A DNA stretch of 64,000 nt from Candidatus Parcubacteria bacterium (GTDB taxonomy: Bacteria > Patescibacteriota > Minisyncoccia > Phycocordibacterales > JAKAEA01), in the NCBI GenBank assembly GCA_019661945.1, contig JAIFWI010000002.1, forward strand, positions 763 through 64,762, written 5' to 3'. The position numbers and the translations under genes are program-made. This document shows positions 1 to 20,173 of the stretch, in pieces (positions within the stretch are counted from its first letter, which is position 1; each line of letters starts with the position of its first letter). Below the pieces are notes generated by a model. It saw only the letters and a program-made list of their open reading frames with translations. It was not told where the DNA came from and made no database searches.

Positions 1-1228
1 CACTTGTTTGAATAAGCGAGTGAGTGCCAATCAAAATGGGGATTTCACCATTGGCTACCCATTTTAAAAGTTGGGTCCGGGAGATGTCCGTCCAGCTTTT
101 TGGATTTACTTTGGAAGGAAATTTTTTACAGCCTGATGACGTAATCAAGCCAACAGAAATACCTAAATGGAAAAAATACTGAATAAAAGATTCAAAATGC
201 TGCTTGGCTAAAATTTCGGTTGGACACATATAGGCCACTTGAAGAGCGCCAAATGTTTGATTATGCGGCCGAGTTGTAACAGCAGCAAAGGCAGTGGTCG
301 CAGCCACGGCTGTTTTACCTGAGCCGACATCACCTTCAAGCAGGCGTGACATAGGGTGACCAGAGGCAAAATCTTTTAAAATATCGGCAATAGCTTTGCT
401 TTGAGCCTCTGTTTCTTTAAATGGGAAGCGCGAGGTAAATTTCTGGATATCCTCAGGGCTTTTTTCAATAACAAAGGCCGGACTTTTTTCCATTTCTAAA
501 CGATCTTTTTGTTTTCGAAGTTGGATGAAAAAAACTTCTTCAAAAGCAAAACGTTTACGAGCTGACTCGGCATCTGCTTCTTTGCGGGGAGTATGAATCC
601 AAATCAGAGCCGTTTTTAATCCTGGCAAATTATATTTTTTAAGAATCTCTTCAGGAATTGGATCAACGAGTGTTTCCAGAACTCCTGAAGCAAAGATTTT
701 CTGGATAGCATGGTAAAGCCACTTTGAAGTAATACCTTGAGTTTCGGAATAGGTGGGCAGAGGACTGGCGGCTTCATGCGATTCACCAAAAAGAGAAGAT
801 CCGGCCACAGACGGCGGCGCATCAGTCACTTGAAATTCCGGATTAGAAAGATAGAGGAAGCCTTTTTTGCTTTGGGAAATCTTGCCGGTAAATCGGGCAT
901 AGGCGCCTTCGGGCAACATTTTGGCAATATACGGCTGATGAAACCAAACGACTTGAAGTTTGCCGGTAGAATCCTGAAGTTCGCCTTTTGCCATGGGAAT
1001 TCGGGAGCGAAAGCCTTTTTTTAATTCCAGACCGGTAACCTGACCATAGACTGAAGCTGTCTCACCATGCACTAGGTCGGTAATATTTTTAACCTCGCCC
1101 ATATTGATATAGCGGGTTGGAAAGTAATACAAAATATCCTGGACAGTGTGTAGGCCAAGGCGTTTCAACCCTTTTTTTTGAGTATCGAGCAGGCGAAATT
1201 CTTCTAATATTGTAGAGCCGAGGTTCAT
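1..1228 (-). CDS. recG: ATP-dependent DNA helicase RecG, N-terminal part. The gene runs off the left window edge, so it is absent from the ORF track.
   Basis: Manual minus-strand translation from ATG at 1228 gives MNLGSTILEEFRLLDTQKKGLKRLGL... with RecG wedge-domain-like region and Walker A GDVGSGKT; continuous ORF to position 1. Confidence 0.75.
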   Translation of the reverse strand, partial: MNLGSTILEEFRLLDTQKKGLKRLGLHTVQDILYYFPTRYINMGEVKNITDLVHGETASVYGQVTGLELKKGFRSRIPMAKGELQDSTGKLQVVWFHQPYIAKMLPEGAYARFTGKISQSKKGFLYLSNPEFQVTDAPPSVAGSSLFGESHEAASPLPTYSETQGITSKWLYHAIQKIFASGVLETLVDPIPEEILKKYNLPGLKTALIWIHTPRKEADAESARKRFAFEEVFFIQLRKQKDRLEMEKSPAFVIEKSPEDIQKFTSRFPFKETEAQSKAIADILKDFASGHPMSRLLEGDVGSGKTAVAATTAFAAVTTRPHNQTFGALQVAYMCPTEILAKQHFESFIQYFFHLGISVGLITSSGCKKFPSKVNPKSWTDISRTQLLKWVANGEIPILIGTHSLIQTS

Positions 1229-1229
1229 A

Positions 1230-2117
1230 TTATAGTATATCAAATTTCTGACCCCTTTTGACTATAAAACCCTCATTTTGAAGAGCAGAAATATTCTTTT
1301 GAAATTGCTCTGAGGTAACCTTAACATTGTTGAGTTCAAGAAAAGATAAAATACTTTTTTGAGTCTGGGGCTTCAAAGTTATAGCTTTCAGAATGGTTGA
1401 GCGAATCTGGCGGTTCGAGCCTATAAAACTTGATTGCTTTGTATAATGCCGGCTCTGTTTATTTAAATTACCATGAGTTTTCTTGAGCATCACACCATAA
1501 TCCATCAAGGCATGATACCACTCCCTAGGATTATTTTTATCCAATGTCTTTTCAACAAGTAACAAGATATCGGCGTCAGCCACGAGAGGTAAAGTGCCAG
1601 AAGCAGGGGAAGGTGCCGCGCGACTTGCAGCTTGCGAAACGAAGCGCGGCACCTTCCCTTGCTTCTTATAAAAATAAATAAAAACCGTGCGGATGTTGGT
1701 TTCGATAATAGGGAAGGGTTTATTAAATGCAAAAGCCATGATGGCGCCGGCGGTGTACGGACCGATGCCGGGTAATTCTAATATTTTTTCGTAATTGGCT
1801 GGAAGTTTGCCATTATATTTTTCGCAAATGATGGCCGCCGCGCGCTTGAGCGCAAGCGCGCGGCGATTATATCCTAATCCTTGCCATATTTTCAGAACTT
1901 TCTGAAGCGGCGCATCTGCCAAATCTTTGAATGTGGGGAAGTGCTCGAGCCACTCTTCATACTTCTTTACAACTCTGTCAGTCTGAGTCTGCTGGAGCAT
2001 GATTTCCGAGACCAGAATCTTGTAGGGATCTTTAGTCTCTCGCCACGGAAAGGCCCTTTTATGAGCTTTGTAGTACTTCCATATGGTATTTCTGAATTGT
2101 CTGGTATTTATCAACAT
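1230..2117 (-). CDS. HhH-GPD base-excision glycosylase, MutY/Nth-like. No Cys4 Fe-S motif is visible.
   Basis: 295 aa; HhH-GPD motif LPGIGPYTAGAIMAFAF, MutY-like N-term (FPWR, IMLQQTQ); the C4 cluster cysteines are not present. Confidence 0.65.
   Translation of the reverse strand: MLINTRQFRNTIWKYYKAHKRAFPWRETKDPYKILVSEIMLQQTQTDRVVKKYEEWLEHFPTFKDLADAPLQKVLKIWQGLGYNRRALALKRAAAIICEKYNGKLPANYEKILELPGIGPYTAGAIMAFAFNKPFPIIETNIRTVFIYFYKKQGKVPRFVSQAASRAAPSPASGTLPLVADADILLLVEKTLDKNNPREWYHALMDYGVMLKKTHGNLNKQSRHYTKQSSFIGSNRQIRSTILKAITLKPQTQKSILSFLELNNVKVTSEQFQKNISALQNEGFIVKRGQKFDIL
1616..1667. repeat. Perfect 15-bp GC-rich inverted repeat (gggaaggtgccgcgc ... gcgcggcaccttccc) with a 22-nt loop, inserted in-frame inside the glycosylase CDS
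   Basis: Read directly; encodes PRFVSQAASRAAPSPASG, an insertion relative to MutY where the Fe-S loop normally lies. Confidence 0.6.
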
Positions 2118-3807: not shown

Positions 3808-4452
3808 TTAATGAGCAATACTAAAGGCGATAACGTTTCTAGCTCCTGATTTGAGGAGCGTAGTTTTTGCTTCGAGGATAGTAGAACCAGTTGTGGTGAC
3901 ATCATCAAGCAGAATTATATTTCTCTTTTTTATTTTTTCTGGTTCTAAGACTGCAAAACAACCTTTCAAATTTTTCAGGCGTTTTGATTTTGAGAGTTTA
4001 GTCTGGGCTTCGGTATGACGAATTTTTTTCAATATATTTTTTTCGAGCATAAATGATCTATTTCTATCTTTTGCTTGAAGAGCCGTAGCAATCATTTCAG
4101 TTTGATTCCAGCCTCGTTCTTGGAGACGTTGGCTTGAAAGGGGAATGGGAATAAGCAGAGGATCAGTAAAGCCTGAAAACAAGGCTTCATCGGCTAGGTA
4201 TTCAATGATTTCATCATACAGAATGTCAGCTAAAAGTCTGGCGAGTGTGTTGTTGCCGCGATATTTTAATTCCCATAATGTTTTTTGAACTAAGGGATGT
4301 TTATAATTGAAAATACTGACAATATCAGCTGAAATCTGCTCAAGTGCTTGTGGCGCTTCCGAAATAAAATCTTCAGCTGTCATTTTTTCGATTCTTTCAA
4401 TATCAATAGGTTGAGGAAATAGTATGTCAATGAAATAGTGTAGGAAATTCAT
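3808..4452 (-). CDS. ComF-family phosphoribosyltransferase (competence protein F-like)
   Basis: 214 aa; C-terminal PRTase motif ILLDDVTTTGSTI. Confidence 0.7.
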   Translation of the reverse strand: MNFLHYFIDILFPQPIDIERIEKMTAEDFISEAPQALEQISADIVSIFNYKHPLVQKTLWELKYRGNNTLARLLADILYDEIIEYLADEALFSGFTDPLLIPIPLSSQRLQERGWNQTEMIATALQAKDRNRSFMLEKNILKKIRHTEAQTKLSKSKRLKNLKGCFAVLEPEKIKKRNIILLDDVTTTGSTILEAKTTLLKSGARNVIAFSIAH

Positions 4453-4522
4453 ATATATATAGTAGCGATAGGTGTTAAAAACTTCTTAAAGACTAATTCA
4501 TCTGTGGTATACTACTTTTGTA

Positions 4523-5686
4523 ATGGCAAACTTTTTTAAGAAGCTTTTTGGTGGAACAAATGCCAGTGTATTGGGTATTGATATTGGATCAGCAGCTATT
4601 AAAATTGTTCAACTTCGAAAGAAATCTGGCCAGGCAGTTCTCGAAACATATGGCTCACTTGCTCTTGGACCATACGGTAATGTTGAAATTGGCCGCTCAC
4701 CAAACTTGCCGCCCGAAAAGATTATTGAAGCGCTCATTGATGTTTTGCGTGAATCACATGTCTCAACAAATCAAGCTGGATTAGCCGTGCCCTATGGGGC
4801 TAGTCTTATTTCAGTAGCAGAATTGCCCGAAGTAGCTGAAGCAGAGCTTATGAAAATTATTCCTTTTGAGGCGCGTAAATATATTCCTGTGCCGCTTTCA
4901 GAAGTGATGCTTGATTGGATGATCATTCCTAAAGCTGTAGGAGCGGCCGATAAAACTCGTCAGTTACAGCAGCCACAGCCTCAATCTCAGGCTCAAGCAG
5001 GAGTTGAGCCAGCTCAGGCACCGCCTTCTCAAGTACAAAAAACAATAGAAGTACTTTTAGTGGCAATGCACAATGAAACTATTTCTCGTTATCAATCAAT
5101 TGTCACTCAGGCTGGTCTCAATGTCAGTTTTCTTGAAATAGAAGCATTCAGCAATATTAGATCAGTCCTTGATCAGGGTGCAACAAGTGAAATGCTTATT
5201 GATATAGGCTCAGCCACGACAAAAGTATATATCGTTGAGAAGGGGATTATTCGTACACCTCATCTTGTTAATCATGGTTCGCAGGACGTAACTATGGCTC
5301 TTTCTTCAAAACTTGGAATTTCCGTCGAGGAAGCTGAAGTCTTGAAACGAGGCCTGGTCAAAGTGCCAGAAGGACAGCAAAAGGATGTTGGTGAAGTGAT
5401 TTTGCAGGCGCTTGAACCGCTTTTCTCAGAAATTAATCAGGTCTTATTGAGTTATCAGAAGCGCTATAATAAGGATATTGCTAAAACTTCCATAGTTGGT
5501 GGCGGTGCCCGTTTAGCTAACCTCCTTACTTTTGCCGAATCAAGAATTAGAACAAATGTTGTTCTGGGCAATCCTTTTGGAAAAACCCTAGCCCCGGCCT
5601 TTTTGGAGCAAGTACTCAAAGAAACTGGACCTGAATTTGCCGGAGCAGTGGGCGTTGCCCTAAGGAAACTGCAAGAACAAGGTTAA
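4523..5686 (+). CDS. pilM: Type IV pilus assembly ATPase-like protein PilM
   Basis: 387 aa actin-like fold; N-terminus LGIDIGSAAIKIV; first gene of the pil operon; Q/P-rich low-complexity insert. Confidence 0.85.
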   Translation: MANFFKKLFGGTNASVLGIDIGSAAIKIVQLRKKSGQAVLETYGSLALGPYGNVEIGRSPNLPPEKIIEALIDVLRESHVSTNQAGLAVPYGASLISVAELPEVAEAELMKIIPFEARKYIPVPLSEVMLDWMIIPKAVGAADKTRQLQQPQPQSQAQAGVEPAQAPPSQVQKTIEVLLVAMHNETISRYQSIVTQAGLNVSFLEIEAFSNIRSVLDQGATSEMLIDIGSATTKVYIVEKGIIRTPHLVNHGSQDVTMALSSKLGISVEEAEVLKRGLVKVPEGQQKDVGEVILQALEPLFSEINQVLLSYQKRYNKDIAKTSIVGGGARLANLLTFAESRIRTNVVLGNPFGKTLAPAFLEQVLKETGPEFAGAVGVALRKLQEQG

Positions 5687-5737
5687 GTGGAAAACTCGTA
5701 CTAGACCTGTAGAGCTTTGTGATACAATAGAATATAC

Positions 5738-6343
5738 ATGGAGGGTAAATTTCAAACATCATTCATTCCAAAAAAATCTGGAGGTGGTCAGCCTTCGTAT
5801 GTCACGCCTGTCAGGACCATAAATTTCTTTACCCTGACAATTATAATTATTTTTGCCACGGTTGTTCTGCTTTCAGCCGGAGTTTATGGTTATAAATGGA
5901 TGCTTAACCGTAACAATGAAGAAATCAAAGATGAGTTAAGCGCAGCTCTTGATGCTCTCAGAAAAGAAAACATCGCAGAGCTTGGCAGACTCGACTCAAG
6001 AATTGAAACAGGTAAAACACTTCTTGGTGAACACGTAGCTCTATCTGAATTCTTTACGTTTTTGAGTAAATCAACGCTACAAAATGTTCGCTTTACAAAT
6101 TTTAGATACAGCCTGACCGGCGATCAGAAAATAACAGTCAGTATGAATGGTATGGCCAGAAACTTCTCTTCCTTGGCCCTTCAGATAGATGAATTTTCAG
6201 CCACAACATCACAAAAGTATATAAAGGGCCCGGTATTTTCCAGTTATAGTTTAGACAAAGCAGGCAATGTTTCGTTTGTGTTTACTGCTGTGGTTAATCC
6301 TGAGTCAATTTTGTATAAGGAGCTTTTTAAAGAAGAACAATGA
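5738..6343 (+). CDS. pilN: PilN-like pilus assembly protein (single N-terminal TM)
   Basis: Position after pilM; one TM then coiled coil. Confidence 0.5.
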   Translation: MEGKFQTSFIPKKSGGGQPSYVTPVRTINFFTLTIIIIFATVVLLSAGVYGYKWMLNRNNEEIKDELSAALDALRKENIAELGRLDSRIETGKTLLGEHVALSEFFTFLSKSTLQNVRFTNFRYSLTGDQKITVSMNGMARNFSSLALQIDEFSATTSQKYIKGPVFSSYSLDKAGNVSFVFTAVVNPESILYKELFKEEQ

Positions 6344-6861
6344 AACTCTTAACCCCTTTATTTTTAATAGTTTTTGCCGGAGCGATACTGTATTTCTTTA
6401 CCTATCCTTGGTATCAGGAAATTCAGGTACTTCGGGCAGAAATAGTTGAGAACCAGGATTCACTTGATCGGGCAGAAAGAGCAAAAACATCGCTCGCTCA
6501 AAAAAGAACTCTCTATGATACTTTTTCTGATGAAGATAAGGCTAAACTTGAGACATTCCTTCCAGATAAAGTAGATGATGTTCGCTGGATCGTTGATCTG
6601 ACCTCGATTACCCGACGCAATAATGCGACACTAAGCGACATTAGAGTGTCCGAAGACTCGCGAGGTTCAACAGAAAGCCCTGTTGGAGTAGTAACCGCGA
6701 CATATAAAGTCAGTCTGCCATATGCTTCCTTTCTTAAATATCTGGCAGATTTGCAGAAGAGTTTAAAATTTACTGACATTAGTTCTGTTGATTTTGCTTC
6801 GTCAGTCACCGGTACAACGTACGACTACATTGTTAATCTTAAAACCTATTGGTTAAAATAA
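6340..6861 (+). CDS. pilO: PilO-like pilus assembly protein
   Basis: Position and architecture (N-terminal TM, coiled coil); 4-nt overlap with the upstream gene. Confidence 0.5.
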   Translation: MKLLTPLFLIVFAGAILYFFTYPWYQEIQVLRAEIVENQDSLDRAERAKTSLAQKRTLYDTFSDEDKAKLETFLPDKVDDVRWIVDLTSITRRNNATLSDIRVSEDSRGSTESPVGVVTATYKVSLPYASFLKYLADLQKSLKFTDISSVDFASSVTGTTYDYIVNLKTYWLK

Positions 6862-6865
6862 TATT

Positions 6866-7180
6866 ATGTACGAGCACCACACAATAAGTAAAACAAAAGT
6901 CAGCCTCATCGTTCTCTTCCTTGTTGGTGTCTGTATTGGCTACGATCAATTATTTGTTAACCGAGTTACCGCGCAGGAGACGCCATTGTCAGCACTTACT
7001 GTGGAATCATTGAGTATTATTAATAAGATTGAAGCTCTGAAGCTCGATAATAGTATTCTGAATGATGAAGCTTTTATGAGTCTTGAAGACTACTCTGTCC
7101 TCATCGAAAAGGAACCTGTCGGACGTCCTAATCCATTTGCACCCTTTACTGGTCAAGTAAGCCAACCACGAGGGCGCTAA
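6866..7180 (+). CDS. Small membrane-anchored protein in the pilus operon (PilP-like?)
   Basis: 104 aa, N-terminal TM, operon context only. Confidence 0.3.
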   Translation: MYEHHTISKTKVSLIVLFLVGVCIGYDQLFVNRVTAQETPLSALTVESLSIINKIEALKLDNSILNDEAFMSLEDYSVLIEKEPVGRPNPFAPFTGQVSQPRGR

Positions 7181-7192
7181 CTATAAGCCCTT

Positions 7193-8938
7193 ATGACACT
7201 GCTAGACGCTCTTGCAGAAAAAAAACTAATCTCTAAAAGCCAGGCTGCGGAAATTCGAGAAGAAGTAGAACGCGGCGACAAAACCCTTGAGATTGCACTC
7301 AAGGATAGAGGCATTACCGAAGAACAAATTCTGATAGTTAAATCAGAAGTGTTGGAGGTGCCGGTCCGGACTATTCAGAATGTGGAGACCTTACAGTCAT
7401 CGGTACTCGATTACATTCCTGAAGAATCGGCCATTCACTATAAATTTATTCCACTCGGAGTAAAAGATGGTGTGCTTGAAGTTGGACTTGTTGATCCTGA
7501 CAATATTGAAGCTCGGGATGCTCTAAGCTTTATTTCCACAAAAGTAAATATGCCCTATAAGGCATATCTCATTTCTCAGACTGATTTTGAGAAAGTATTG
7601 GGGGCGTATCGAAATTTAGCTTCTGAAGTAACAAAAGCTCTGGATGATTTGGATTCAGAACTTAAGGGTACAACCCCTGCCCAAGAAGACAAAGTTTCAA
7701 GTACAAAGCCTGGAGAGGGAGCAAAGGGAAAAGAGAATAATGATGATACAAAGATTGTTGAAGATGCGCCGGTAACAAAAATTGTAGCTACCGTTCTGCG
7801 TTATGCCAGTGAGGGCAATGCTTCTGACATTCACATTGAGCCTATGCGAGATAATGTTCGAGTTCGATTTCGCGTTGACGGCATTTTAAATACCAGTTTA
7901 GTCCTGCCAAATAAAGTTCATGCAGCTTTGGCCGCCCGCATAAAAATACTTTCAAACATGCGTCTTGATGAAAAAAGAAAACCTCAGGACGGACGTTTTT
8001 CGGCAAAAATTGAAGGACACAAAATTGATTTCCGTGTTTCGACATTCCCGACATATTTCGGAGAGAAAGTCGTGATGCGTATCCTTGATCAGGAAAAATC
8101 TGTTAAAAATTTCGATGTCATGGGCCTGACTGAACGAAACTTAAATCTTATTAAGGCTGCTATCAAGAAACCATATGGTTTGATTCTTATTTCTGGTCCA
8201 ACCGGTTCCGGAAAAACCACGACGCTCTATTCTATGTTGAGCCTTGTCGATCGTGAACGAAAAAATGTTCTATCCCTCGAAGATCCGATTGAATACAATA
8301 TGGATGGTGTCAATCAGTCTCAGATTCGACCGGAAATCGGCTACACCTTTGCCAATGGTCTGCGTACTACCTTGCGTCAAGACCCGAACGTTATTTTGGT
8401 GGGAGAGATTCGAGATAAAGAAACAGCTCAGCTTGCCGTCCAGGCGGCTCTTACCGGACACTTGGTGCTTTCAACCATTCACACCAATAACTCTGTTGGT
8501 GTAATTCCGCGTCTCATTGATATGGGAGTTGATCCGTATCTTATTGCGCCGACGCTTGTTTTGGCTGTTGGTCAGCGTCTGGCGGCCATGCTTTGTCCTG
8601 GGGCTGGTAAAGAAATTCCGGTGGAAGGGAGCCTGAGAGTTCGAATAGATAAGCAATTTGAAGATTTACCAGCCGAAATTAGGAAACAAATTCAAATCCC
8701 GGCCACTATACGGGAAGTTGAGCCAACCTCAGAATGTCCAAGCGGTACACGCGGCAGAGCACCTGTCTTTGAAATGTTTGAAATGGATAAAGACATTGAG
8801 CGAGCCATATTATCCAATGCCACGGAGCTCGAAATTTCAAAAATCGTTCGCCAGAAAGGCATGCTTAACATGCGGGAAGACGCTTGGCTCAAGGCTTTTC
8901 GGGGGGAACTGCCTATCGAGGAGGTAAACAAATTGTAA
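7193..8938 (+). CDS. pilB: Type IV pilus extension ATPase PilB (GspE family)
   Basis: 581 aa; Walker A GPTGSGKTTT, Asp box, His box, C-terminal tetracysteine-like region. Confidence 0.9.
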   Translation: MTLLDALAEKKLISKSQAAEIREEVERGDKTLEIALKDRGITEEQILIVKSEVLEVPVRTIQNVETLQSSVLDYIPEESAIHYKFIPLGVKDGVLEVGLVDPDNIEARDALSFISTKVNMPYKAYLISQTDFEKVLGAYRNLASEVTKALDDLDSELKGTTPAQEDKVSSTKPGEGAKGKENNDDTKIVEDAPVTKIVATVLRYASEGNASDIHIEPMRDNVRVRFRVDGILNTSLVLPNKVHAALAARIKILSNMRLDEKRKPQDGRFSAKIEGHKIDFRVSTFPTYFGEKVVMRILDQEKSVKNFDVMGLTERNLNLIKAAIKKPYGLILISGPTGSGKTTTLYSMLSLVDRERKNVLSLEDPIEYNMDGVNQSQIRPEIGYTFANGLRTTLRQDPNVILVGEIRDKETAQLAVQAALTGHLVLSTIHTNNSVGVIPRLIDMGVDPYLIAPTLVLAVGQRLAAMLCPGAGKEIPVEGSLRVRIDKQFEDLPAEIRKQIQIPATIREVEPTSECPSGTRGRAPVFEMFEMDKDIERAILSNATELEISKIVRQKGMLNMREDAWLKAFRGELPIEEVNKL

Positions 8939-8957
8939 GCTGTGGTATACTAAAATC

Positions 8958-9356
8958 ATGGATACTCAACCGAAATACAAAGTTTTTCTGATCGATGATG
9001 ACACCTTTTTACTGAATATGTATTCGCTTAAATTTTCAAAAAGTGGTTTTGAAGTGAATACTGCCCAGACCACTCATGAAGCTTTGCAGAAAATCAAACA
9101 AGGATATGAGCCAGACATCATGTTAATTGACATTATTATGCCCGGAATGGATGGTCTTGAGATGCTTTCGGAAATACGCAAAGAGAATCTTGCCCCAAAG
9201 GCAACCGTAATCATGCTTACTAATCAAAGTGATACCACGGACATTGAAAAAGCAAAAGGTCTTGATGTGGATGGGTATATTGTTAAAGCCACTACTATTC
9301 CATCAGAAGTTATAAGCGATGTCGTGGAAATTCATAAAAAACATACACAATCATGA
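8958..9356 (+). CDS. Stand-alone response regulator receiver (CheY-like) between pilB and pilT
   Basis: 132 aa; DD...D phospho-acceptor pattern (FLIDDD, MLIDIIMPGMDG), conserved K. Confidence 0.8.
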   Translation: MDTQPKYKVFLIDDDTFLLNMYSLKFSKSGFEVNTAQTTHEALQKIKQGYEPDIMLIDIIMPGMDGLEMLSEIRKENLAPKATVIMLTNQSDTTDIEKAKGLDVDGYIVKATTIPSEVISDVVEIHKKHTQS

Positions 9357-10420
9357 ATCAAGGTGCATATAAAAAAGTAGTAGATGATCTTATTGATGTT
9401 ATCGTAAAGGAAGATGGTTCGGACCTTCACTTGTCTGAAGGACGAAGTCCGGCCGTTCGTGTATCAGGTAGTCTGGTGCTTCTCGATAAATTTCCAGCTT
9501 TTAGTCAGGATGATATGCATGGCATATTGGATCATTTAATGACTCCTGAAAGTAAGCAGATGTTTATCCAAAATAAAGAAGTAGATTTTTCATATTCACA
9601 TCAAGACACGCGTTTTCGAGGTAATGGTTTCTATCGACAGGGCATGATCGGTATAGCTCTGCGTCTTATTCCGCACAAGATTAAAACGTTGGCAGAGTTA
9701 AATCTGCCGCAAATTCTTGAAACATTTACCCGCAAAACCCAGGGTTTTTTCCTGGTTGTCGGACCGGTAGGTCAGGGTAAGTCTACAACCTTGGCCGCTA
9801 TGATTGAACTGGTTAATCAAGAGCGTCTTGAACATATTCTGACTATTGAAGATCCGATTGAATATATTTATGAGCCAAAGAAGTCAATCATTGATCAGCG
9901 TGAAATTCGGATTGATACTCGGGATTTTCACACAGCACTTTTCTCAATGTTCCGACAAGATATTAATGTCTGTCTAGTTGGGGAAATGCGTGACCCCGAG
10001 ACGATCGCAACGGCAGTGACCGCGGCTGAAACGGGCCACCTTGTTTTTTCAACTTTGCACACCAATAACGCTTCTCAAACAATTGATCGTATTATTGACT
10101 CCTTCCCAGCCGATCAGCAGTCTCAAATTCGTATGCAATTGGCCGGAAGCTTAACAGGAATTTTTTCCCAACGCTTGATACCGAGAATTTCAGGCGGACT
10201 TATTCCAGCCTATGAGCTTCTCATTAATAATAGTGCTGTTGCAAACCTTATTCGTGAACGCCGTACGCATGAGCTCAATAGTGTCATTGAAACCGGTTCT
10301 CAACTTGGAATGATTGATCTTAATCGTTCTTTAGCGGAATTGGTTAAGGCCGGGGAGATAAGCGTTGAAAATGCCTACCGATATTCATTGAATCCGAAAG
10401 TCTTGGAGAAAATGTTATAA
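9353..10420 (+). CDS. pilT: Twitching motility retraction ATPase PilT
   Basis: 355 aa; Walker A GPVGQGKSTT; PilT family motifs. Confidence 0.9.
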   Translation: MNQGAYKKVVDDLIDVIVKEDGSDLHLSEGRSPAVRVSGSLVLLDKFPAFSQDDMHGILDHLMTPESKQMFIQNKEVDFSYSHQDTRFRGNGFYRQGMIGIALRLIPHKIKTLAELNLPQILETFTRKTQGFFLVVGPVGQGKSTTLAAMIELVNQERLEHILTIEDPIEYIYEPKKSIIDQREIRIDTRDFHTALFSMFRQDINVCLVGEMRDPETIATAVTAAETGHLVFSTLHTNNASQTIDRIIDSFPADQQSQIRMQLAGSLTGIFSQRLIPRISGGLIPAYELLINNSAVANLIRERRTHELNSVIETGSQLGMIDLNRSLAELVKAGEISVENAYRYSLNPKVLEKML

Positions 10421-10439
10421 AGTAAGTGACGAGGCGCGT

Positions 10440-11654
10440 ATGTTATTTAACTACAAAGCAATTGATACAACAGGTGCGTCACGTGAAGGCGCAATCGAAG
10501 CAGTCACCGTTGATGTGGCCATTAATTCTCTTCAGCGAAGAGGCTTAATTATCTCATCGATTAAATCTGCCGAAGAGGCTCTGCCCCTTCTTCAAAGAGG
10601 ATTAAGTTTCTCCTTTCTTAAACGTGTCAGCAATAAAGACATCGTTATTCTCTCACGCCAATTGGCTATTCTTTTTGAAGCTCAAGTTTCAGCTTTGAGA
10701 ATATTTCGATTGATTGCAGCCGAAATCGAGAACCCCATTCTTCAGAAAAGTTTGCTGACGGTTGCGGAAGATATTCAAGGTGGTAGTTCGATTTCTCGGG
10801 CTATGCAAAAACATCCGAAAGTATTTTCAGATTTTTATGTCAACATGGTTAGATCAGGAGAGGAATCTGGAAAGCTTAATGAAATATTCGGTTATCTTGC
10901 AGATTATCTTGATCGAAGTTACGAAGTGACATCAAAAGCTCGTAATGCCTTAATTTATCCGGCTTTCGTCATTACCATTTTCTTTGCGGTTATGGCCTTA
11001 ATGTTTACGGTCATTATTCCTAAAATTGCCGCTATTATTCTTCAATCTGAGCAGAAAGTTCCATTTTATACCCAAGTTGTACTCTCGATTTCTGCTTTTA
11101 TGGTTAATTATTGGTGGCTGATTCCTATTATTCTCGGCGGCGGCGGTTTCGCTCTCTATCAATACTTTAAAACTGAAAAGGGAATGGAGACGATGGACTC
11201 TTTGAAACTCAATGTTCCTTATATTGGAACACTTTTTCACAAATTATATTTATCACGCTTGACCGACAATATGCACACTATGCTTGTTTCCGGTATTCCT
11301 ATGGTTAAAAGTCTAGAGATTACCTCAGCGGTTGTTGGTAATAGAGTGTATCAAAGAATTCTTGATGCATCAGTTGAAGGTGTACGTGCCGGCAGCTCAC
11401 TTTCAGATGCTATGGCCCGCTATCACGAAATCCCAGGTATTATTATTCAAATGATTAAGGTTGGTGAAGAATCCGGAGAACTCGGCAATATCTTAAAGAC
11501 AATGGCTAAATTTTATCAGCGAGAAGTGATGAATGCCGTCGACACGCTTGTCGATCTTATCGAACCGGTGATGATTGTAACACTTGGTCTTGGTGTCGGT
11601 ATTCTCTTGGCATCAGTCCTTATGCCTATCTACAACTTGGCAAGCGGGTTTTAA
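10440..11654 (+). CDS. pilC: Type IV pilus platform protein PilC (GspF family)
   Basis: 404 aa; two GspF repeats; polytopic. Confidence 0.9.
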   Translation: MLFNYKAIDTTGASREGAIEAVTVDVAINSLQRRGLIISSIKSAEEALPLLQRGLSFSFLKRVSNKDIVILSRQLAILFEAQVSALRIFRLIAAEIENPILQKSLLTVAEDIQGGSSISRAMQKHPKVFSDFYVNMVRSGEESGKLNEIFGYLADYLDRSYEVTSKARNALIYPAFVITIFFAVMALMFTVIIPKIAAIILQSEQKVPFYTQVVLSISAFMVNYWWLIPIILGGGGFALYQYFKTEKGMETMDSLKLNVPYIGTLFHKLYLSRLTDNMHTMLVSGIPMVKSLEITSAVVGNRVYQRILDASVEGVRAGSSLSDAMARYHEIPGIIIQMIKVGEESGELGNILKTMAKFYQREVMNAVDTLVDLIEPVMIVTLGLGVGILLASVLMPIYNLASGF

Positions 11655-11701
11655 CACCCCTCCTGCTTTGCAGTGCTCCCCTCAAGGGGAGAATGATAAA
11701 A
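11655..11701. terminator. Convergent terminator region with two short GC hairpins (ctcccc tcaa ggggag; ctccct ttga agggag)
   Basis: Read directly between convergent pilC and the DUF559 gene. Confidence 0.4.
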
Positions 11702-12088
11702 TCAATCTCCCTTTGAAGGGAGTGGCCGCAGGCCGAGGGATGTTGTTGCTTTATTGATTTTTCCTATAACATTATCTATATCTTTTTCAACCTGATTATT
11801 ACTAAATCTCAAAAAAGTAATGCCAAAAGATTCTAATTGTCCTTGTCTGAATGTATCCGCTTCTATTTTTAATCTGTGAATTTGTCCATCAACTTCAATT
11901 GCTAGCTTTAATTCTTTACAATAAAAATCTAGAATGTAATTCCCAATGGGTTTTTGACGTAAAAACTGATATCCTCGAATCTGTTTACCTTTTAACCTAT
12001 TCCAGAGCAATACCTCGGCCAAGGTACTGTTCTTTCGAAGCTCTCGTGAATGCTCTTTGAGCTTGTGATTATATGGAATTATGTCCAT
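11702..12088 (-). CDS. DUF559 / Vsr-like endonuclease domain protein
   Basis: 128 aa; motifs LWNRLK, FDFY..., AIEVDG..H typical of DUF559. Confidence 0.7.
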   Translation of the reverse strand: MDIIPYNHKLKEHSRELRKNSTLAEVLLWNRLKGKQIRGYQFLRQKPIGNYILDFYCKELKLAIEVDGQIHRLKIEADTFRQGQLESFGITFLRFSNNQVEKDIDNVIGKINKATTSLGLRPLPSKGD

Positions 12089-12128
12089 TAATATAGAGTA
12101 ACAATGATATATGAAATATTTCTAAAAA

Positions 12129-12161
12129 TCCCCCTTAGAAGGGGGCAACCGCTTCAGGCGG
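12129..12161. repeat. Two small GC hairpins (ccccctt ag aaggggg; ccgc ttcag gcgg) upstream of the DUF559 gene, resembling the downstream pair
   Basis: Read directly. Confidence 0.3.
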
Positions 12162-12263
12162 AGGGGATGTTCTTAAATTACTTATCCACATACCCTCCTT
12201 CTCCAGCAGAGCCTGCTAGACTATAATAAGAACATTAGTCACACGACTTATCCGTCTACCTTC

Positions 12264-12275
12264 GCCACGTGGCGA
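12264..12275. promoter_or_regulatory. Perfect 12-bp palindrome cgccacgtggcg about 45 nt upstream of the major pilin start; candidate regulator binding site
   Basis: Read directly. Confidence 0.3.
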
Positions 12276-12320
12276 ACGGCGGAAGCGGACGGTCGATTTA
12301 AATAAGTAATTATAATTATA

Positions 12321-12809
12321 ATGAAAAATATACGAAAAGGTTTCACTTTGATCGAGTTGCTGGTTGTTATCGCCATCATTGGTATTCTGTCTGCAGTCGT
12401 TTTGGCTTCTTTGAACAACGCTCGAGATAAGGGATCAAATGCGGCTATTAAATCAACAGTTAATAATGCTCGCGCACAAGCAGAGCTTTACTATGATAGT
12501 AACCTTCAGTCATATGGTGCTGTTTGTAACAACGGAGCATTAGCTGGTGGTGTGAAAGGTATCTACGATATGAAACTCGGTGCTTCAAACGCCGGTGGTG
12601 GTGTCATTGGTACTGACGTAAAGTGTGCTGTAAGTTCTACCGGTGACGCTTGGGCATTGGAGTCAAAATTGAAAGGAACACCTACAACATATTATTGTGT
12701 TGATTCAACAGGTAATGCTACAACAACCACGGCCACAGGTATTGGTGATGGTACTTTGGGAGCAGGTCCAGCAATAACTGCTAATGCAATTTGTAGCCCG
12801 ATCATCTAG
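12321..12809 (+). CDS. pilA: Type IV major pilin (prepilin with N-terminal methylation motif)
   Basis: MKNIRKGFTLIELLVVIAIIGILSA... class III signal peptide; C-terminal Cys pair. Confidence 0.85.
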   Translation: MKNIRKGFTLIELLVVIAIIGILSAVVLASLNNARDKGSNAAIKSTVNNARAQAELYYDSNLQSYGAVCNNGALAGGVKGIYDMKLGASNAGGGVIGTDVKCAVSSTGDAWALESKLKGTPTTYYCVDSTGNATTTTATGIGDGTLGAGPAITANAICSPII

Positions 12810-12846
12810 TCTCAGTTTGGTAGTACGGTGATATGTTACCGTAAGT

Positions 12847-12875
12847 AAAAATCCCCAGATTGGGGATTTTTACTT
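12847..12875 (+). terminator. Rho-independent terminator (aaaaatcccca gat tggggatttt)
   Basis: Perfect 11-bp stem plus T-tract. Confidence 0.7.
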
Positions 12876-12909
12876 GGTTTCTTTGTTTTCTTTCTGATAT
12901 ACTTGAGGT

Positions 12910-13359
12910 ATGAAAAGAGGCTTTACCTTGATTGAATTGCTCGTAGTTATTGCTGTTATTGGTGTTCTCTCTGCTACTGTTTTAGCTTCTCTTAACAATG
13001 CTCGAGAAAAAGGATCCAATGCAGCTATTAAATCAAGTATTAATAATGCTCGTTCTCAGGCTGAGCTATACTACGCCGATAATACTTTGAGTTATCTTAA
13101 TGTCTGTAACACTGGGGTTTTGGCAGGCGGTTTAACAAAAGGCATTTATGATTTGGCTCTGAACGCCGCAAGTTCCAATGGTGGAGTTGTCGGTACGGAT
13201 GTACTGTGCGCTTCAGATGCAAATACTTGGGCTCTTACTGCACGACTGAGGGGTACGCCTATTAATTGGTACTGTGTCGATTCGACAGGTGTTGCTACAA
13301 CATCGATCATAGCTAATGATGTCGCGGCCGGTGCCGACTATACTTGTGCGGTTGATTGA
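12910..13359 (+). CDS. Type IV pilin paralog
   Basis: MKRGFTLIELLVVIAVIGVLSA...; N-terminal half highly similar to the upstream pilin. Confidence 0.85.
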   Translation: MKRGFTLIELLVVIAVIGVLSATVLASLNNAREKGSNAAIKSSINNARSQAELYYADNTLSYLNVCNTGVLAGGLTKGIYDLALNAASSNGGVVGTDVLCASDANTWALTARLRGTPINWYCVDSTGVATTSIIANDVAAGADYTCAVD

Positions 13360-14180
13360 TACTCGTAATGATTTATCTCTTCGGGATTTTTCTTTTTATT
13401 CTTGGCACAACTATCGGTAGTTTTTTAAACGTCGTTATATATCGATACAATACCGGTATGGGGGTGAATGGGCGGTCCCAATGTTTTTCCTGTGGTAAAA
13501 CGCTGCAATGGTATGAACTTATTCCGCTGTTTAGTTTTATCTTCTTGAGAGGGAGGTGCGGTCAATGCCAAAGTAAAATCTCCTGGCAGTATCCTTTAGT
13601 TGAGTTAACGACGGGTTTAGTATTTCTACTGTTTTTTTTGAAAATAGTCGGTACCCAAATTGTCACACCTGCATTAATAGGTCTTTTACTGTATTCTTTA
13701 GTCATAGCCAGCATTTTTATTGTTATCTTTGTATACGATCTCAAACATAAAATTATTCCTGATGGTTTAGTTATTGCCTTGAGTGTCTTCGCTCTTATAA
13801 GTCTCTTTGTTACTCCGGAATTTACCTTTCAAAGGCCAAGCATTTTAGCCATTCTGGCCGGACCGATATTAGCAGCGCCTTTTGCCCTCCTGTGGCTTAT
13901 GTCACGAGGACGCTGGATGGGCCTTGGAGACGCGAAGCTTGTACTTCCTATGGGCTGGTTTTTAGGCCTTACATATGGTTTTTCAGCAATTATCATCGCT
14001 TTTTGGATTGGGGCGATAATTGGTGTGGGGCTTATCCTCTTGTCAGGGAAGCTCGGCGCTATTACAATGAAGAGTGAAATTCCATTTGCGCCATTTCTTA
14101 TCATTGGCTTCCTGCTTGTCTATTTTTTGGGACTTAACGTTTTTAACCTCAGTACATTCTGGGGAATATACTATCTATGA
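13356..14180 (+). CDS. pilD: Prepilin peptidase PilD (A24 family)
   Basis: 274 aa; CxxC...CxxC (CFSCGKT...CGQCQ), polytopic, catalytic Asp region. Confidence 0.9.
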   Translation: MILVMIYLFGIFLFILGTTIGSFLNVVIYRYNTGMGVNGRSQCFSCGKTLQWYELIPLFSFIFLRGRCGQCQSKISWQYPLVELTTGLVFLLFFLKIVGTQIVTPALIGLLLYSLVIASIFIVIFVYDLKHKIIPDGLVIALSVFALISLFVTPEFTFQRPSILAILAGPILAAPFALLWLMSRGRWMGLGDAKLVLPMGWFLGLTYGFSAIIIAFWIGAIIGVGLILLSGKLGAITMKSEIPFAPFLIIGFLLVYFLGLNVFNLSTFWGIYYL

Positions 14181-14767
14181 AACATATAAAAAGATTAAGA
14201 GCCGGATTTACGTTCGTTGAACTGATAGTCAGTGTCGCTATTATTTTGATTATTTCTTCTATTGTTCTTTTCCAGTACAAAGAATACAACAATGATGTAA
14301 CACTCAAAGGAATCTCCAATGAAATAGCATTAGCTCTCCGTGAGGCTCAGGTCTATGCTACAAGTGGTCGAGAGTTTAAGCCAAACACTAATGTATTTAA
14401 ACTCCAATATGTCCTGTTGTTCGACAAGGCCAACAAGAGCTATAGCTTGTACGGCGATGCTGACGGTGATGGGCAGGTTGTCGCTGATCAGGCAAGTGAG
14501 ATCTTAGTGAATTACACACTTCGACCGGGATATACGATGGACTTGTGTATGAAAAACACAGAAGAAGGGAACTGTATTAATGCCAATCAGACGACACTAT
14601 TTGTTGGATTTCCCTACAAAGATTTTCAGGCGACTATAAAGCAAAGTGATACAGTCCCTAATGATCCTTCTATAAAGTTTGCAGAAATTATCATCTACAA
14701 AATTGGCCAAACACCGCTTCAGGGCGTTTCAGTGCGTATTGAGTCCACAGGACTAATTGAAAATTAA
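14177..14767 (+). CDS. Minor pilin / pseudopilin
   Basis: N-terminus RAGFTFVELIVSVAIILII. Confidence 0.75.
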   Translation: MKHIKRLRAGFTFVELIVSVAIILIISSIVLFQYKEYNNDVTLKGISNEIALALREAQVYATSGREFKPNTNVFKLQYVLLFDKANKSYSLYGDADGDGQVVADQASEILVNYTLRPGYTMDLCMKNTEEGNCINANQTTLFVGFPYKDFQATIKQSDTVPNDPSIKFAEIIIYKIGQTPLQGVSVRIESTGLIEN

Positions 14768-14782
14768 ATTGTATACTTACTA

Positions 14783-15418
14783 TTGATGAGATCGTATATG
14801 AGTTCTCGATATAATAACAAAGGGTTTACGCTTGCAGAGGTTCTGGTAGCTCTGGCAATTTTTGGTTTTGTGGTTATCATGGGATCCGGTACACTTGTGG
14901 CTGTCTCGAATACAAATTACAGCGCTCAGGTATCCCGAAAGACAATTGATAATATTGATTTTATTCTTGATGACATAGTCCGTGAAGCCCGATTCGGCAA
15001 AGATTATCATTGTGAAATTACAGAAACGATCAACGATGCTACACCGAAAGATTGTGATAAGGGGCATCAATCATTTGCCCTAACTCGACTTGATAATGGA
15101 TACATTGTTAGATACGCCACCTCGAGTATTTCTCAGCCAGATGGCAGTAAAAGGTCTGCCCTTATGAAACAGGTAATAGATCCAAATAATCCAGCGCATC
15201 TTGACCCGAATCATCCTGATTATCCTAAAGCAATTCAAATTTCTGCAGATAATATAGATATTAAACACCTTCGTTTTTATGTGTCCGGTTCTGGTGTGTC
15301 TGATGGTTTGCCCGCACAGGTGCTTGTATCAATCCAGGCTGAATTAAAGAAAGGAAGTAAATATCAGACGAGTATTAATCTTCAAACCACGATTGCCCAG
15401 CGGGCATCAGATAATTGA
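14783..15418 (+). CDS. Minor pilin / pseudopilin
   Basis: N-terminus NKGFTLAEVLVALAIFGFVV; start could be 14783, 14786 or 14798. Confidence 0.75.
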   Translation: MMRSYMSSRYNNKGFTLAEVLVALAIFGFVVIMGSGTLVAVSNTNYSAQVSRKTIDNIDFILDDIVREARFGKDYHCEITETINDATPKDCDKGHQSFALTRLDNGYIVRYATSSISQPDGSKRSALMKQVIDPNNPAHLDPNHPDYPKAIQISADNIDIKHLRFYVSGSGVSDGLPAQVLVSIQAELKKGSKYQTSINLQTTIAQRASDN

Positions 15419-15419
15419 T

Positions 15420-16127
15420 ATGAGTACCACTATGCCTACAAAAAAGGGATTTACACTGATTGAAACACTTGTAGCTGTTACCGTCTTATCTATGGCTCTC
15501 ATTCCGCCGATTTATACTGCATATCAAAGTGTTATTGCTACAAACTTTGCCCGCGACCAGATGATTGCCAGCTACTTGGCTCAGGATGCCATGGATTATA
15601 TTATTGCTAAAAAGAATCAAAACATTATTGCTTGTACGAATGCTGGTGATGATGGAATTCAGGGCGGAGGGGGGATAAATGATGATGATAAGGGCCAAGA
15701 TAGTGTCAATGATTATCCTTGTGATGAATATGGTCAAGGTCTCGGCAGGGACTGGCTGGCTGATTTAGATTTGTGTAATGCTACCGGTGTAGCTAATGCC
15801 AATAAAAAATGTGTTGTTGATACAACCAGGGAAAAAGACCAGCCTTATGTATATACCTTTCTGCCTACCTGTGTTGATGGAACAAGTTCTGACTGTTATA
15901 TCTACTTCGACAAAGAACGCAATTTATATCGCCATAGTAATGTTATTACCGAAGTAACTAATCCGGCAAACAAACAACAAACAAAATTTAGACGATATGT
16001 TAGTTTCAAAACATTGTCCGGAGGCAATGAAGCTGCAGTAGCGGTCGTGGTGAAGTGGAAAGCTCAAGGATTTACTACCGATGACTCTGTTACGGTCAGG
16101 TCAAATATTTTTAATGTTAAACCATGA
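15420..16127 (+). CDS. Minor pilin / pseudopilin
   Basis: N-terminus KKGFTLIETLVAVTVLSMAL; start chosen after the upstream stop. Confidence 0.7.
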   Translation: MSTTMPTKKGFTLIETLVAVTVLSMALIPPIYTAYQSVIATNFARDQMIASYLAQDAMDYIIAKKNQNIIACTNAGDDGIQGGGGINDDDKGQDSVNDYPCDEYGQGLGRDWLADLDLCNATGVANANKKCVVDTTREKDQPYVYTFLPTCVDGTSSDCYIYFDKERNLYRHSNVITEVTNPANKQQTKFRRYVSFKTLSGGNEAAVAVVVKWKAQGFTTDDSVTVRSNIFNVKP

Positions 16128-19792: not shown

Positions 19793-20074
19793 ATGATTTC
19801 TGTTGAAGAGATTCGAAAATTAGCGAGCTTAGCTCGGATTAAGCTTACAAAAGATGAAGAAGAGAAACTTTCCAAGGATATGGGAAATATTTTGGCCTAT
19901 ATTGAGCAAATTCAGGAAGTATCGGCTACAGTAGAGGAGTCAGAAAAGCCTTTGCTTCGCAATGTTATGAGAGATGATGCTGAGCCGCATCAGGCGGGAA
20001 TTCACACTGAAGCATTATTAGCCGAGGCACCAAAGCGGGAGGAAAATTATGTGAAGGTGAAGAAAATTCTATAG
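19793..20074 (+). CDS. gatC: Glu/Asp-tRNA amidotransferase subunit C
   Basis: 93 aa; typical GatC N-terminus ISVEEIRKLASLARIKL. Confidence 0.9.
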   Translation: MISVEEIRKLASLARIKLTKDEEEKLSKDMGNILAYIEQIQEVSATVEESEKPLLRNVMRDDAEPHQAGIHTEALLAEAPKREENYVKVKKIL

Positions 20075-20173
20075 TGAAATGATTAAATAAAAATTTCAAT
20101 GGTCTGGCCCGCGCAGACGGGAGATCCGAGGACCTTGAAATTTATATTTAATCATGAAACTATCATTCCACTT

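Follow-up and report, generated by a model that had tools for sequence, protein, structure and literature searches.

The present analysis concerns a stretch of 64,000 nucleotides (nt) of a Candidatus Parcubacteria bacterium (contig JAIFWI010000002.1), hereafter the window, to whose numbering all positions refer unless a contig handle precedes them. Near its beginning, on the minus strand, it encodes a clusterless adenine DNA glycosylase of the MutYX type followed by recG, which runs off the window. As recG starts 1 nt beyond the glycosylase stop codon, the two make up a glycosylase-recG unit, the first gene of which houses a 68-bp hairpin. This hairpin is an insertion relative to most orthologues, and it probably, if not securely, represents a small palindromic DNA element resembling the Rickettsia palindromic elements (RPEs) and sequences of the repetitive extragenic palindromic (REP) type. 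The gene order glycosylase-recG is also found in L094, L001-L003, and L097/L098. GC skew stays positive from one end of the window to the other, and the plus strand carries nearly all genes; the glycosylase-recG pair is among the few minus-strand units, i.e., head-on to the presumed direction of replication.

The glycosylase is composed of an HhH-GPD catalytic domain and a C-terminal winged-helix-like domain. Its best solved relative is PDB 8UUC (E=1.9e-54), the MutYX of Eggerthella sp., an adenine glycosylase that has no cluster and whose C-terminal domain is distinct (PMC12631127). A Candidatus Parcubacteria metagenome-assembled genome contains a protein identical to that of the window (P0001), which is annotated there as A/G-specific adenine glycosylase. 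A preliminary description of this DNA had placed the insert at the position normally holding the Cys4 loop of the Fe-S cluster and had remarked that no cysteines are present there. The lack of cysteines is confirmed as a MutYX trait shared by the whole family: after ALMDYGVML, the orthologue alignment reads KKTxGNLNKRSKHYTKQSxFKGSNRQ throughout, and the motif Cys-X6-Cys-X2-Cys-X5-Cys is absent from every family member. The canonical MutY motif follows the ALMDYG helix, and the insert is located about 40 residues upstream of that place. The proposed link with a lost Fe-S cluster is thus wrong, because the cysteines are lacking family-wide and the motif lies some 40 residues downstream of the insert; a replacement of the Fe-S loop by the insert is ruled out by its position and by the clusterless family to which the protein belongs (orthologue alignment, 8UUC). 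For annotation purposes, the missing cysteines should be regarded as a property of MutYX and not as a consequence of the insertion.

Both arms of the perfect 15-nt inverted repeat with a 22-nt loop, as first described, are found in the sequence (Table 1), and the 18-residue string then reported, PRFVSQAASRAAPSPASG, corresponds to residues 157-174 of the product of the minus-strand open reading frame (ORF), in frame inside the MutY-like coding sequence. The span then given, 1616-1667, was shifted by about 9 nt, and pairing extends beyond the perfect arms. The GC content of the 68-bp hairpin is well above the 42% of the host gene. The 86-nt hairpin region folds strongly as RNA (-46.6 kcal/mol, z = -6.9), and none of 200 shuffled sequences was as stable. 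At the window composition, chance would produce 0.01 perfect inverted repeats per 64 kb with arms of 15 nt or more and a spacer no longer than 80 nt. The hairpin is the sole long intragenic inverted repeat of the window, the remaining long ones being intergenic.

The hairpin encodes a 23-residue linker rich in Ala, Ser, Pro, and Arg between two helices (peptide stretch of the insert: KVPRFVSQAASR). The alignment with homologues indicates an insertion, as the preliminary description had supposed: the spacing from ETNIR to ALMDYG amounts to 42 residues in 124 of the 183 full-length orthologues and to 64 residues in the window protein. The remaining 59 orthologues deviate from the 42-residue spacing, the loop being hypervariable. 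The 42-residue spacing was likewise found at 38 of 50 loci in a profile scan of the genome collection, with identities of at most 51% among the matches listed. In the closest orthologue for which DNA is available (L094, 70% nucleotide identity), the empty site reads FYFGDKFGQIHD. The alignment with 8UUC covers query residues 21-148 and 179-252, leaving 30 query residues opposite 8 residues of the solved chain. In the AlphaFold2 model, the mean predicted local distance difference test (pLDDT) score is 89.6 overall, with blocks of 62, 48, and 57 over residues 151-180, and a coil at residues 153-180 is flanked by confident helices (140-152 and 181-191). According to this model, the insertion site is predicted to be a surface loop compatible with the fold. 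Nothing supports translational bypass or an intron-like removal of the insert, since all inserts seen are in frame and stop-free; these inserts were ascertained through intact annotated proteins, so that out-of-frame cases would be hidden.

Table 1. Coordinates of the hairpin, its host locus, and related hairpins in other contigs.
Feature	Position	Strand	Description and evidence
recG (runs off window)	2..1228	-	Pfam RecG_wedge 4.7e-17, DEAD 9e-13
Clusterless adenine DNA glycosylase, MutYX type, 295 aa	1230..2117	-	ORF; Pfam HhH-GPD E=6e-17, HHH 8.5e-9
Residues 153-180, low-confidence coil, no secondary structure	1578..1661	-	AlphaFold2 model
Hairpin codons K151-S173 (KKQGKVPRFVSQAASRAAPSPAS)	1599..1667	-	23 codons, 69 nt, in frame, no stop; translation and alignment gap
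Whole hairpin element, 68 bp	1599..1666		23-nt arms (1599-1621 and 1644-1666), 1 mismatch, 22-nt loop; inverted-repeat search, fold
Perfect 15-nt arm	1607..1621		GGGAAGGTGCCGCGC (+ strand); conserved family core GGTGCCGCGC at 1612-1621
Hairpin loop, 22 nt	1622..1643		+ strand GACTTGCAGCTTGCGAAACGAA; gene sense TTCGTTTCGCAAGCTGCAAGTC
Perfect 15-nt arm	1644..1658		GCGCGGCACCTTCCC (+ strand; = GCGCGGCACCTTCCCC less one); family core GCGCGGCACC at 1644-1653
Second perfect palindrome, same gene	1836..1865		Arms CGCCGCGCGCTTG / CAAGCGCGCGGCG, 13 nt, 4-nt loop
Intergenic terminator-like copy in L002	L002:2925-2969 (= L097 about 4409-4453)		Between cupredoxin-like gene and recG
Loop hairpin of L086			Nested stems; -86 to -90 kcal/mol depending on segment folded
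Loop hairpin of L051			Arms CTCTAAAAGAGGGG / CCCCTCTTTTAGAG
Loop hairpin of L001			Own sequence family
Loop hairpin of L096			Three-way junction
Two element copies of L096	L096:584-653 and L096:2142-2215		Outer stem CCCCGTTAGARG, inner hairpins
IMG/VR hairpins	L099:2297-2354, L100:4876-4943		Terminal repeat ACCCCGTTAGAAG...CTTCTAACGGGG, interiors differ; CCTTTA precedes both

The same element is found in distant orthologues. A core made of GGTGYCRCGC, 22-25 nt, and GCGYGRCACC occurs in frame in the same protein loop in L002 (protein P0006) and in L084/L085 (P0062), the arms of these hairpins being GAGAGGTGTCACGC and GGTGTCACGC and their loops 25 and 22 nt long. In all three carriers, the window included, the total insert measures 63-72 nt; L002 has a different central loop. 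Compared with the L084 core in reverse complement, the window core agrees at 37/43 positions (20/22 in the loop), the element being therefore oppositely oriented in the two genes. Outside the loop, these genes share 56% nucleotide identity, 33% at third codon positions, and their GC contents are 42% (window) and 59% (L084). On these alignments, the element is more conserved than its host gene. The encoded peptides depend on orientation (FVSQAAS in the window vs. DLPLAQR in L084); as they differ, selection at the protein level cannot explain the conservation of the core, which, judged from the nucleotide comparison, must reflect either constraint at the nucleic-acid level or a recent shared ancestry of the element.

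A loop-masked neighbour-joining tree, which is rough and, over such distances, not robust, places the three carriers (window, L002, L084) in three subclades, the other members of which lack the element. The core is placed 17, 29, and 35 nt past the IxF codons in the three genes (hand-derived from the sequences), and such differing offsets fit separate insertions. When the element is read in its own orientation, GT(A/G)N is seen directly before the stem on its 5' side in all four copies. Two further loop inserts known from proteins only (P0004 and P0236) share APRSLGE(V/G)GS, loosely like VPRFVSQAAS of the window, and could be truncated remnants of this element.

The occurrence of two orientations raises the idea of an intragenic inverton, in which the 22-nt loop would flip within a population and give two protein variants. 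Both orientations are indeed open in frame (RFVSQAASR vs. RDL(P/Q)LA(Q/K)RS, including the translation of the inverted window loop), but recombinase-mediated inversion would need a spacer far longer than 22 nt, no invertase is encoded nearby among the 60 of 65 window ORFs that were scanned, and the orientations differ between distant lineages only, which makes this explanation very improbable. Fold-back chimeras are known from amplified DNA, and the hairpin might accordingly be suspected of being an assembly or amplification artefact. The chance of this is negligible: related hairpins stand at the same place in independent NCBI, JGI, Logan, and ENA assemblies, the insert is in frame and stop-free, and the L084 and L085 copies, which come from two runs, are identical.

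Copies also exist outside the protein loop. In L002, a second copy lies 950 nt downstream of the intragenic one, between the cupredoxin gene and recG and in the opposite orientation. Its loop is identical at 22 of 25 positions (GAATTTTTCnnnCAAGAAAAACGGA), and its stem differs yet is paired (GGGGAGYTTCGC), so that L002a has the stem type of L084 together with the loop type of L002b. The intergenic copy, like L002a, contains purine-rich 3x3 internal loops (GAA/GAA, GAA/GGA). Two copies are likewise present in L096, where the hairpin belongs to a different family. They are spaced about 1.5 kb apart on a 5.4-kb contig, one in the glycosylase gene and the other in an unrelated PQQ-dehydrogenase-like gene, where the element fills an insertion of about 33 residues relative to 6H7T. 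Both have the same orientation and frame, with peptides DPVRGRSP...SNGVE and SPVRSKSP...SNGVK. Possible TTGA/TGA target duplications accompany the L096 copies; nothing clear of this kind is seen beside the window copy, which is an inverted repeat over its entire length. The terminal repeat of this family, CCCCGTTAGARG, recurs in two IMG/VR contigs (L099 and L100). The L099 hairpin overlaps the 3' end of a glycosyltransferase-like ORF, to which it adds the peptide SPVRS. Because the L096 family recurs elsewhere, at least some of the hairpins found in the loop belong to dispersed element families. The absence of other copies, considered in the preliminary description as an argument against an inserted element, therefore holds within the 64-kb window and does not hold in related genomes.

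A scan of viral contigs with the stem pattern returned seven matches, six of them in contigs of 58-72% GC. The closest, L090 (IMG/VR phage contig, 52% GC), was rejected as unrelated, being a phage in which AAGGTGTCAC is repeated upstream of its terminase genes. At L090:640-940, at least five copies of AAGGTGTCAC(G), some as inverted pairs, precede the genes for the terminase small and large subunits. The copies probably form an array for packaging or for the binding of a regulator, and their likeness to the hairpin arm appears coincidental.

A functional role in cis could be imagined for the element, which, as a DNA hairpin or cruciform or as an mRNA structure, would tune the expression, the stability, or the replication-transcription handling of the glycosylase-recG unit. 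In its favour, the conservation of core and loop exceeds that of the host gene, the stems covary, the linkage of glycosylase and recG is conserved, and the intergenic copy of L002 is placed just upstream of recG; the complete lack of one-sided (G-U type) stem changes would moreover fit a structure forming on both DNA strands. Against this, only a small minority of orthologues carry the element, the others having unrelated hairpins or none, the central loop of L002 is different, and the orientation relative to the transcript varies, which would not be tolerable for an RNA element. An Rfam covariance-model scan of the hairpin gave only generic (miRNA-like) matches below threshold, at 25-26 bits compared with gathering scores of 79-103, and the scan of orthologous loci gave no match. 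No terminator-like site was detected within 1100-2300 on either strand; the sequence after the stem is CUGCUUCUGGCAC in the sense direction and A-rich in antisense, with no U/T tail. A cis-acting function is improbable on this evidence, and a function as RNA in particular, proposed earlier as the alternative of a structured regulatory RNA, is unlikely because the orientation differs, most orthologues lack the element, and neither an Rfam match nor a terminator tail is present.

The way in which the stems change is informative about their maintenance. Of the 19 stem pairs in the four copies, nine show a change in both partners and none a change in a single partner; the differences between arms are thus all compensated on both sides. 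Stem cells are paired at 85.5%, and 0 of 500 shuffles reach the observed values. Template switching is documented (Monttinen and Loytynoja 2022, PMC8794818) to yield stems that are perfect, compensatory changes of several bases, and inverted loops, all of which are seen when the window hairpin is compared with its related copies. The L001 hairpin has the appearance of a linear insert, present also in L003, that was duplicated in inverted form. When the window copy was examined for derivation of one arm from the flank, the 5' outer arm KKQGK aligned weakly with DKFGQ of L094. The second perfect palindrome of the same gene (Table 1) encodes the conserved motif RRALALKRAA through GC-rich synonymous codons in this gene of 42% GC; the corresponding arm measures 12 nt in L003, 9 nt in L026, and 3-7 nt in 60 other orthologues.

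These observations lend some weight to a history without any mobility, in which a linear insert in the hypervariable loop would have undergone inverted duplication by template switching and then been inherited vertically, with repeated losses and re-perfecting of the arms. The perfect arms, the double-sided stem changes, and the inverted loop are three signatures of template switching (PMC8794818); the L001 hairpin can be explained as an inverted copy of sequence in the non-hairpin insert of L003; the RRALALKRAA motif forms a perfect palindrome in a few lineages only; the loop is hypervariable; and the window holds a single copy. Nevertheless, template switching does not preserve a loop, and yet 20 of 22 loop positions are identical between genes with saturated third positions and GC contents 17 points apart. 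The core offsets differ among the three genes, the fourth copy lies outside the gene, and the L096 family is present in an unrelated gene and in other contigs. De novo copying, in addition, cannot create the initial GC-rich sequence. Template switching alone does not explain the 43-nt core shared by distant hosts, the differing offsets, and the extragenic copies. A purely locus-bound origin is a serious candidate, if a rather unlikely one.

The loop also harbours hairpins of other families. Nine orthologues had an insert of at least 10 residues and obtainable DNA, and seven of these inserts fold strongly (z from -3.9 to -8.6). The strong folders span different sequence families, one of which unites the window, L002, and L084; folding is only weak in L095, whose insert has 20 residues, and in L003, whose insert is short. 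The idea that the flanking HFFF/DKEI codons act as a natural quasi-palindrome nucleating hairpins was rejected: their complementarity is 5.3/12, compared with 3.1-5.1 in shifted controls, and the mean z is -0.31 in 35 insert-free orthologues. A more specific proposal would be that Patescibacteria host a class of hairpins homing to this one segment of the clusterless MutY loop, with at least five families colonising it independently in either orientation and being propagated or maintained by hairpin-driven template switching without transposase. Such a class is a doubtful proposition for the moment. If it were real, these hairpins would be self-perpetuating structural DNA parasites of a DNA-repair gene, and they would offer a natural case of new protein linker sequence made from palindromes.

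The account preferred here, with measured confidence, is that of a small RPE- or REP-like palindromic element inserted in a tolerant loop and read as a linker, with template switching preserving the pairing of its arms. This palindromic piece of DNA, GC-rich and non-coding, would have landed in the loop-coding stretch of the clusterless MutY gene. The ribosome would read through the insert and the enzyme would tolerate the linker, the element presumably doing nothing for the protein. It may spread as DNA, either via a trans-acting enzyme or by template switching at replication, and template switching within the hairpin (quasi-palindrome correction) would keep the arms complementary and occasionally invert the loop. 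The insertion in a disordered loop, the two orientations, and the copies in relatives agree with the Rickettsia-like, in-frame insertion that had been suggested from the window alone.

Several points weigh against this account. The window copy is single: neither the arms nor the loop (at up to 3 mismatches) recur in the 64 kb, and no repeated small-element family was found there. No transposase, recombinase, or HUH enzyme was detected among the 60 of 65 window ORFs scanned, and at the window copy, no clear target-site duplication or terminal signature is definable. The evidence for multiple copies comes from relatives and not from the window genome; as neither second copy is more than 1.5 kb away from the glycosylase, copying may have been local. 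With 68 bp, the element has about half the size of an RPE. When compared with 1.84 billion representative proteins, the 30-residue insert peptide matched only itself, the sensitivity of this search being low for such a short query. Finally, at least five unrelated hairpin families occur in one loop, which random insertion followed by a tolerance filter does not explain. Two other searches were uninformative: metagenome pattern scans (the loop; a stem plus loop-end pattern compatible with the three known copies) gave no matches and missed the L002 contig as well, so that they do not bear on copy number, and a profile search of proteins with the alignment of the three loop segments retrieved short fragments only.

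Further features of the window and of a relative were noted. A type IV pilus/competence-like cluster (4523-16124) comprises PilM, two T2SSE ATPases, T2SSF, a prepilin peptidase, and five N-methyl pilins, with a ComF-like gene at 3811-4452 and a DUF559 endonuclease-like gene on the minus strand at 11705-12088. An AT-rich inverted repeat at 20071-20163 has 29-nt arms, 86% complementary, and a 35-nt spacer; the left arm reaches into a short ORF (19793-20074) by a few bases at its end, and the right arm covers about 65 bases at the beginning of an amidase-family ORF starting at 20099. In a 1-Mb relative (L098:16885-18014), FtsH-like Peptidase_M41 and AAA domains are called as separate genes of 175 and 179 aa, which may represent a split gene or a gene with an insertion.

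Compared with known systems, the host protein is closest to the solved MutYX 8UUC, which belongs to the same family and shares the HhH-GPD domain, the lack of Cys-X6-Cys-X2-Cys-X5-Cys, and the distinct C-terminal domain. The solved enzyme differs by having 8 residues where the window protein has 30, and thus no hairpin-encoded linker.

With products of template switching (PMC8794818), the element shares perfect arms, multi-base compensation, an inverted loop, and a neighbouring motif perfected at synonymous sites. This process accounts for local creation and maintenance, but not for the 43-nt core shared by distant hosts or for the copies outside the gene, and it has been described for RNA genes and not for translated inserts in a bacterial repair gene. 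The locus is in this respect a compact natural test case for how hairpins stay perfect.

REP/REPIN sequences and terminator-like mobile hairpins such as the pneumococcal SPRITE (PMC3733652, PMC10969869) resemble the element by a GC-rich stem-loop with a variable stem in which pairing is kept. Terminator-looking intergenic copies (L002, L099) and the GT(A/G)N seen just 5' of the stem in four copies add to this likeness. REP/REPIN sequences with a RAYT are, however, extragenic, high-copy, imperfect palindromes of 20-40 nt with a GTAG/CGTC tag and a cognate Y1 transposase, a definition into which the window element does not fall. It is intragenic, inside an ORF, 68 bp long, and of low copy number, with a family loop of 22-25 nt; no RAYT/Y1 transposase was found among the scanned window ORFs, and the window copy lacks a U/T tail.

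RPEs measure about 100-150 bp (Ogata et al. 2000, summarised in PMC10969869). Like them, the window hairpin is non-autonomous, stands in frame in a housekeeping gene, and is predicted to be read as an extra peptide, in a fold-compatible surface loop and absent from orthologues; the L096 family, furthermore, holds one frame in two different genes. In contrast to RPEs, no multi-copy family is present in the available 64 kb, the window family occurs in both orientations and thus has no conserved peptide, and the host belongs to Patescibacteria and not to Rickettsia. The presence of several unrelated hairpin families in one loop of one gene is not described for RPEs either, which raises the question of why a single repair-gene loop beside recG collects at least five of them. 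To our knowledge, in-frame palindromic elements are textbook matter only for Rickettsia. Were Patescibacteria, with their reduced genomes, to share this behaviour, selfish or structural DNA would be seen to have a more general way of adding disordered segments to essential proteins.

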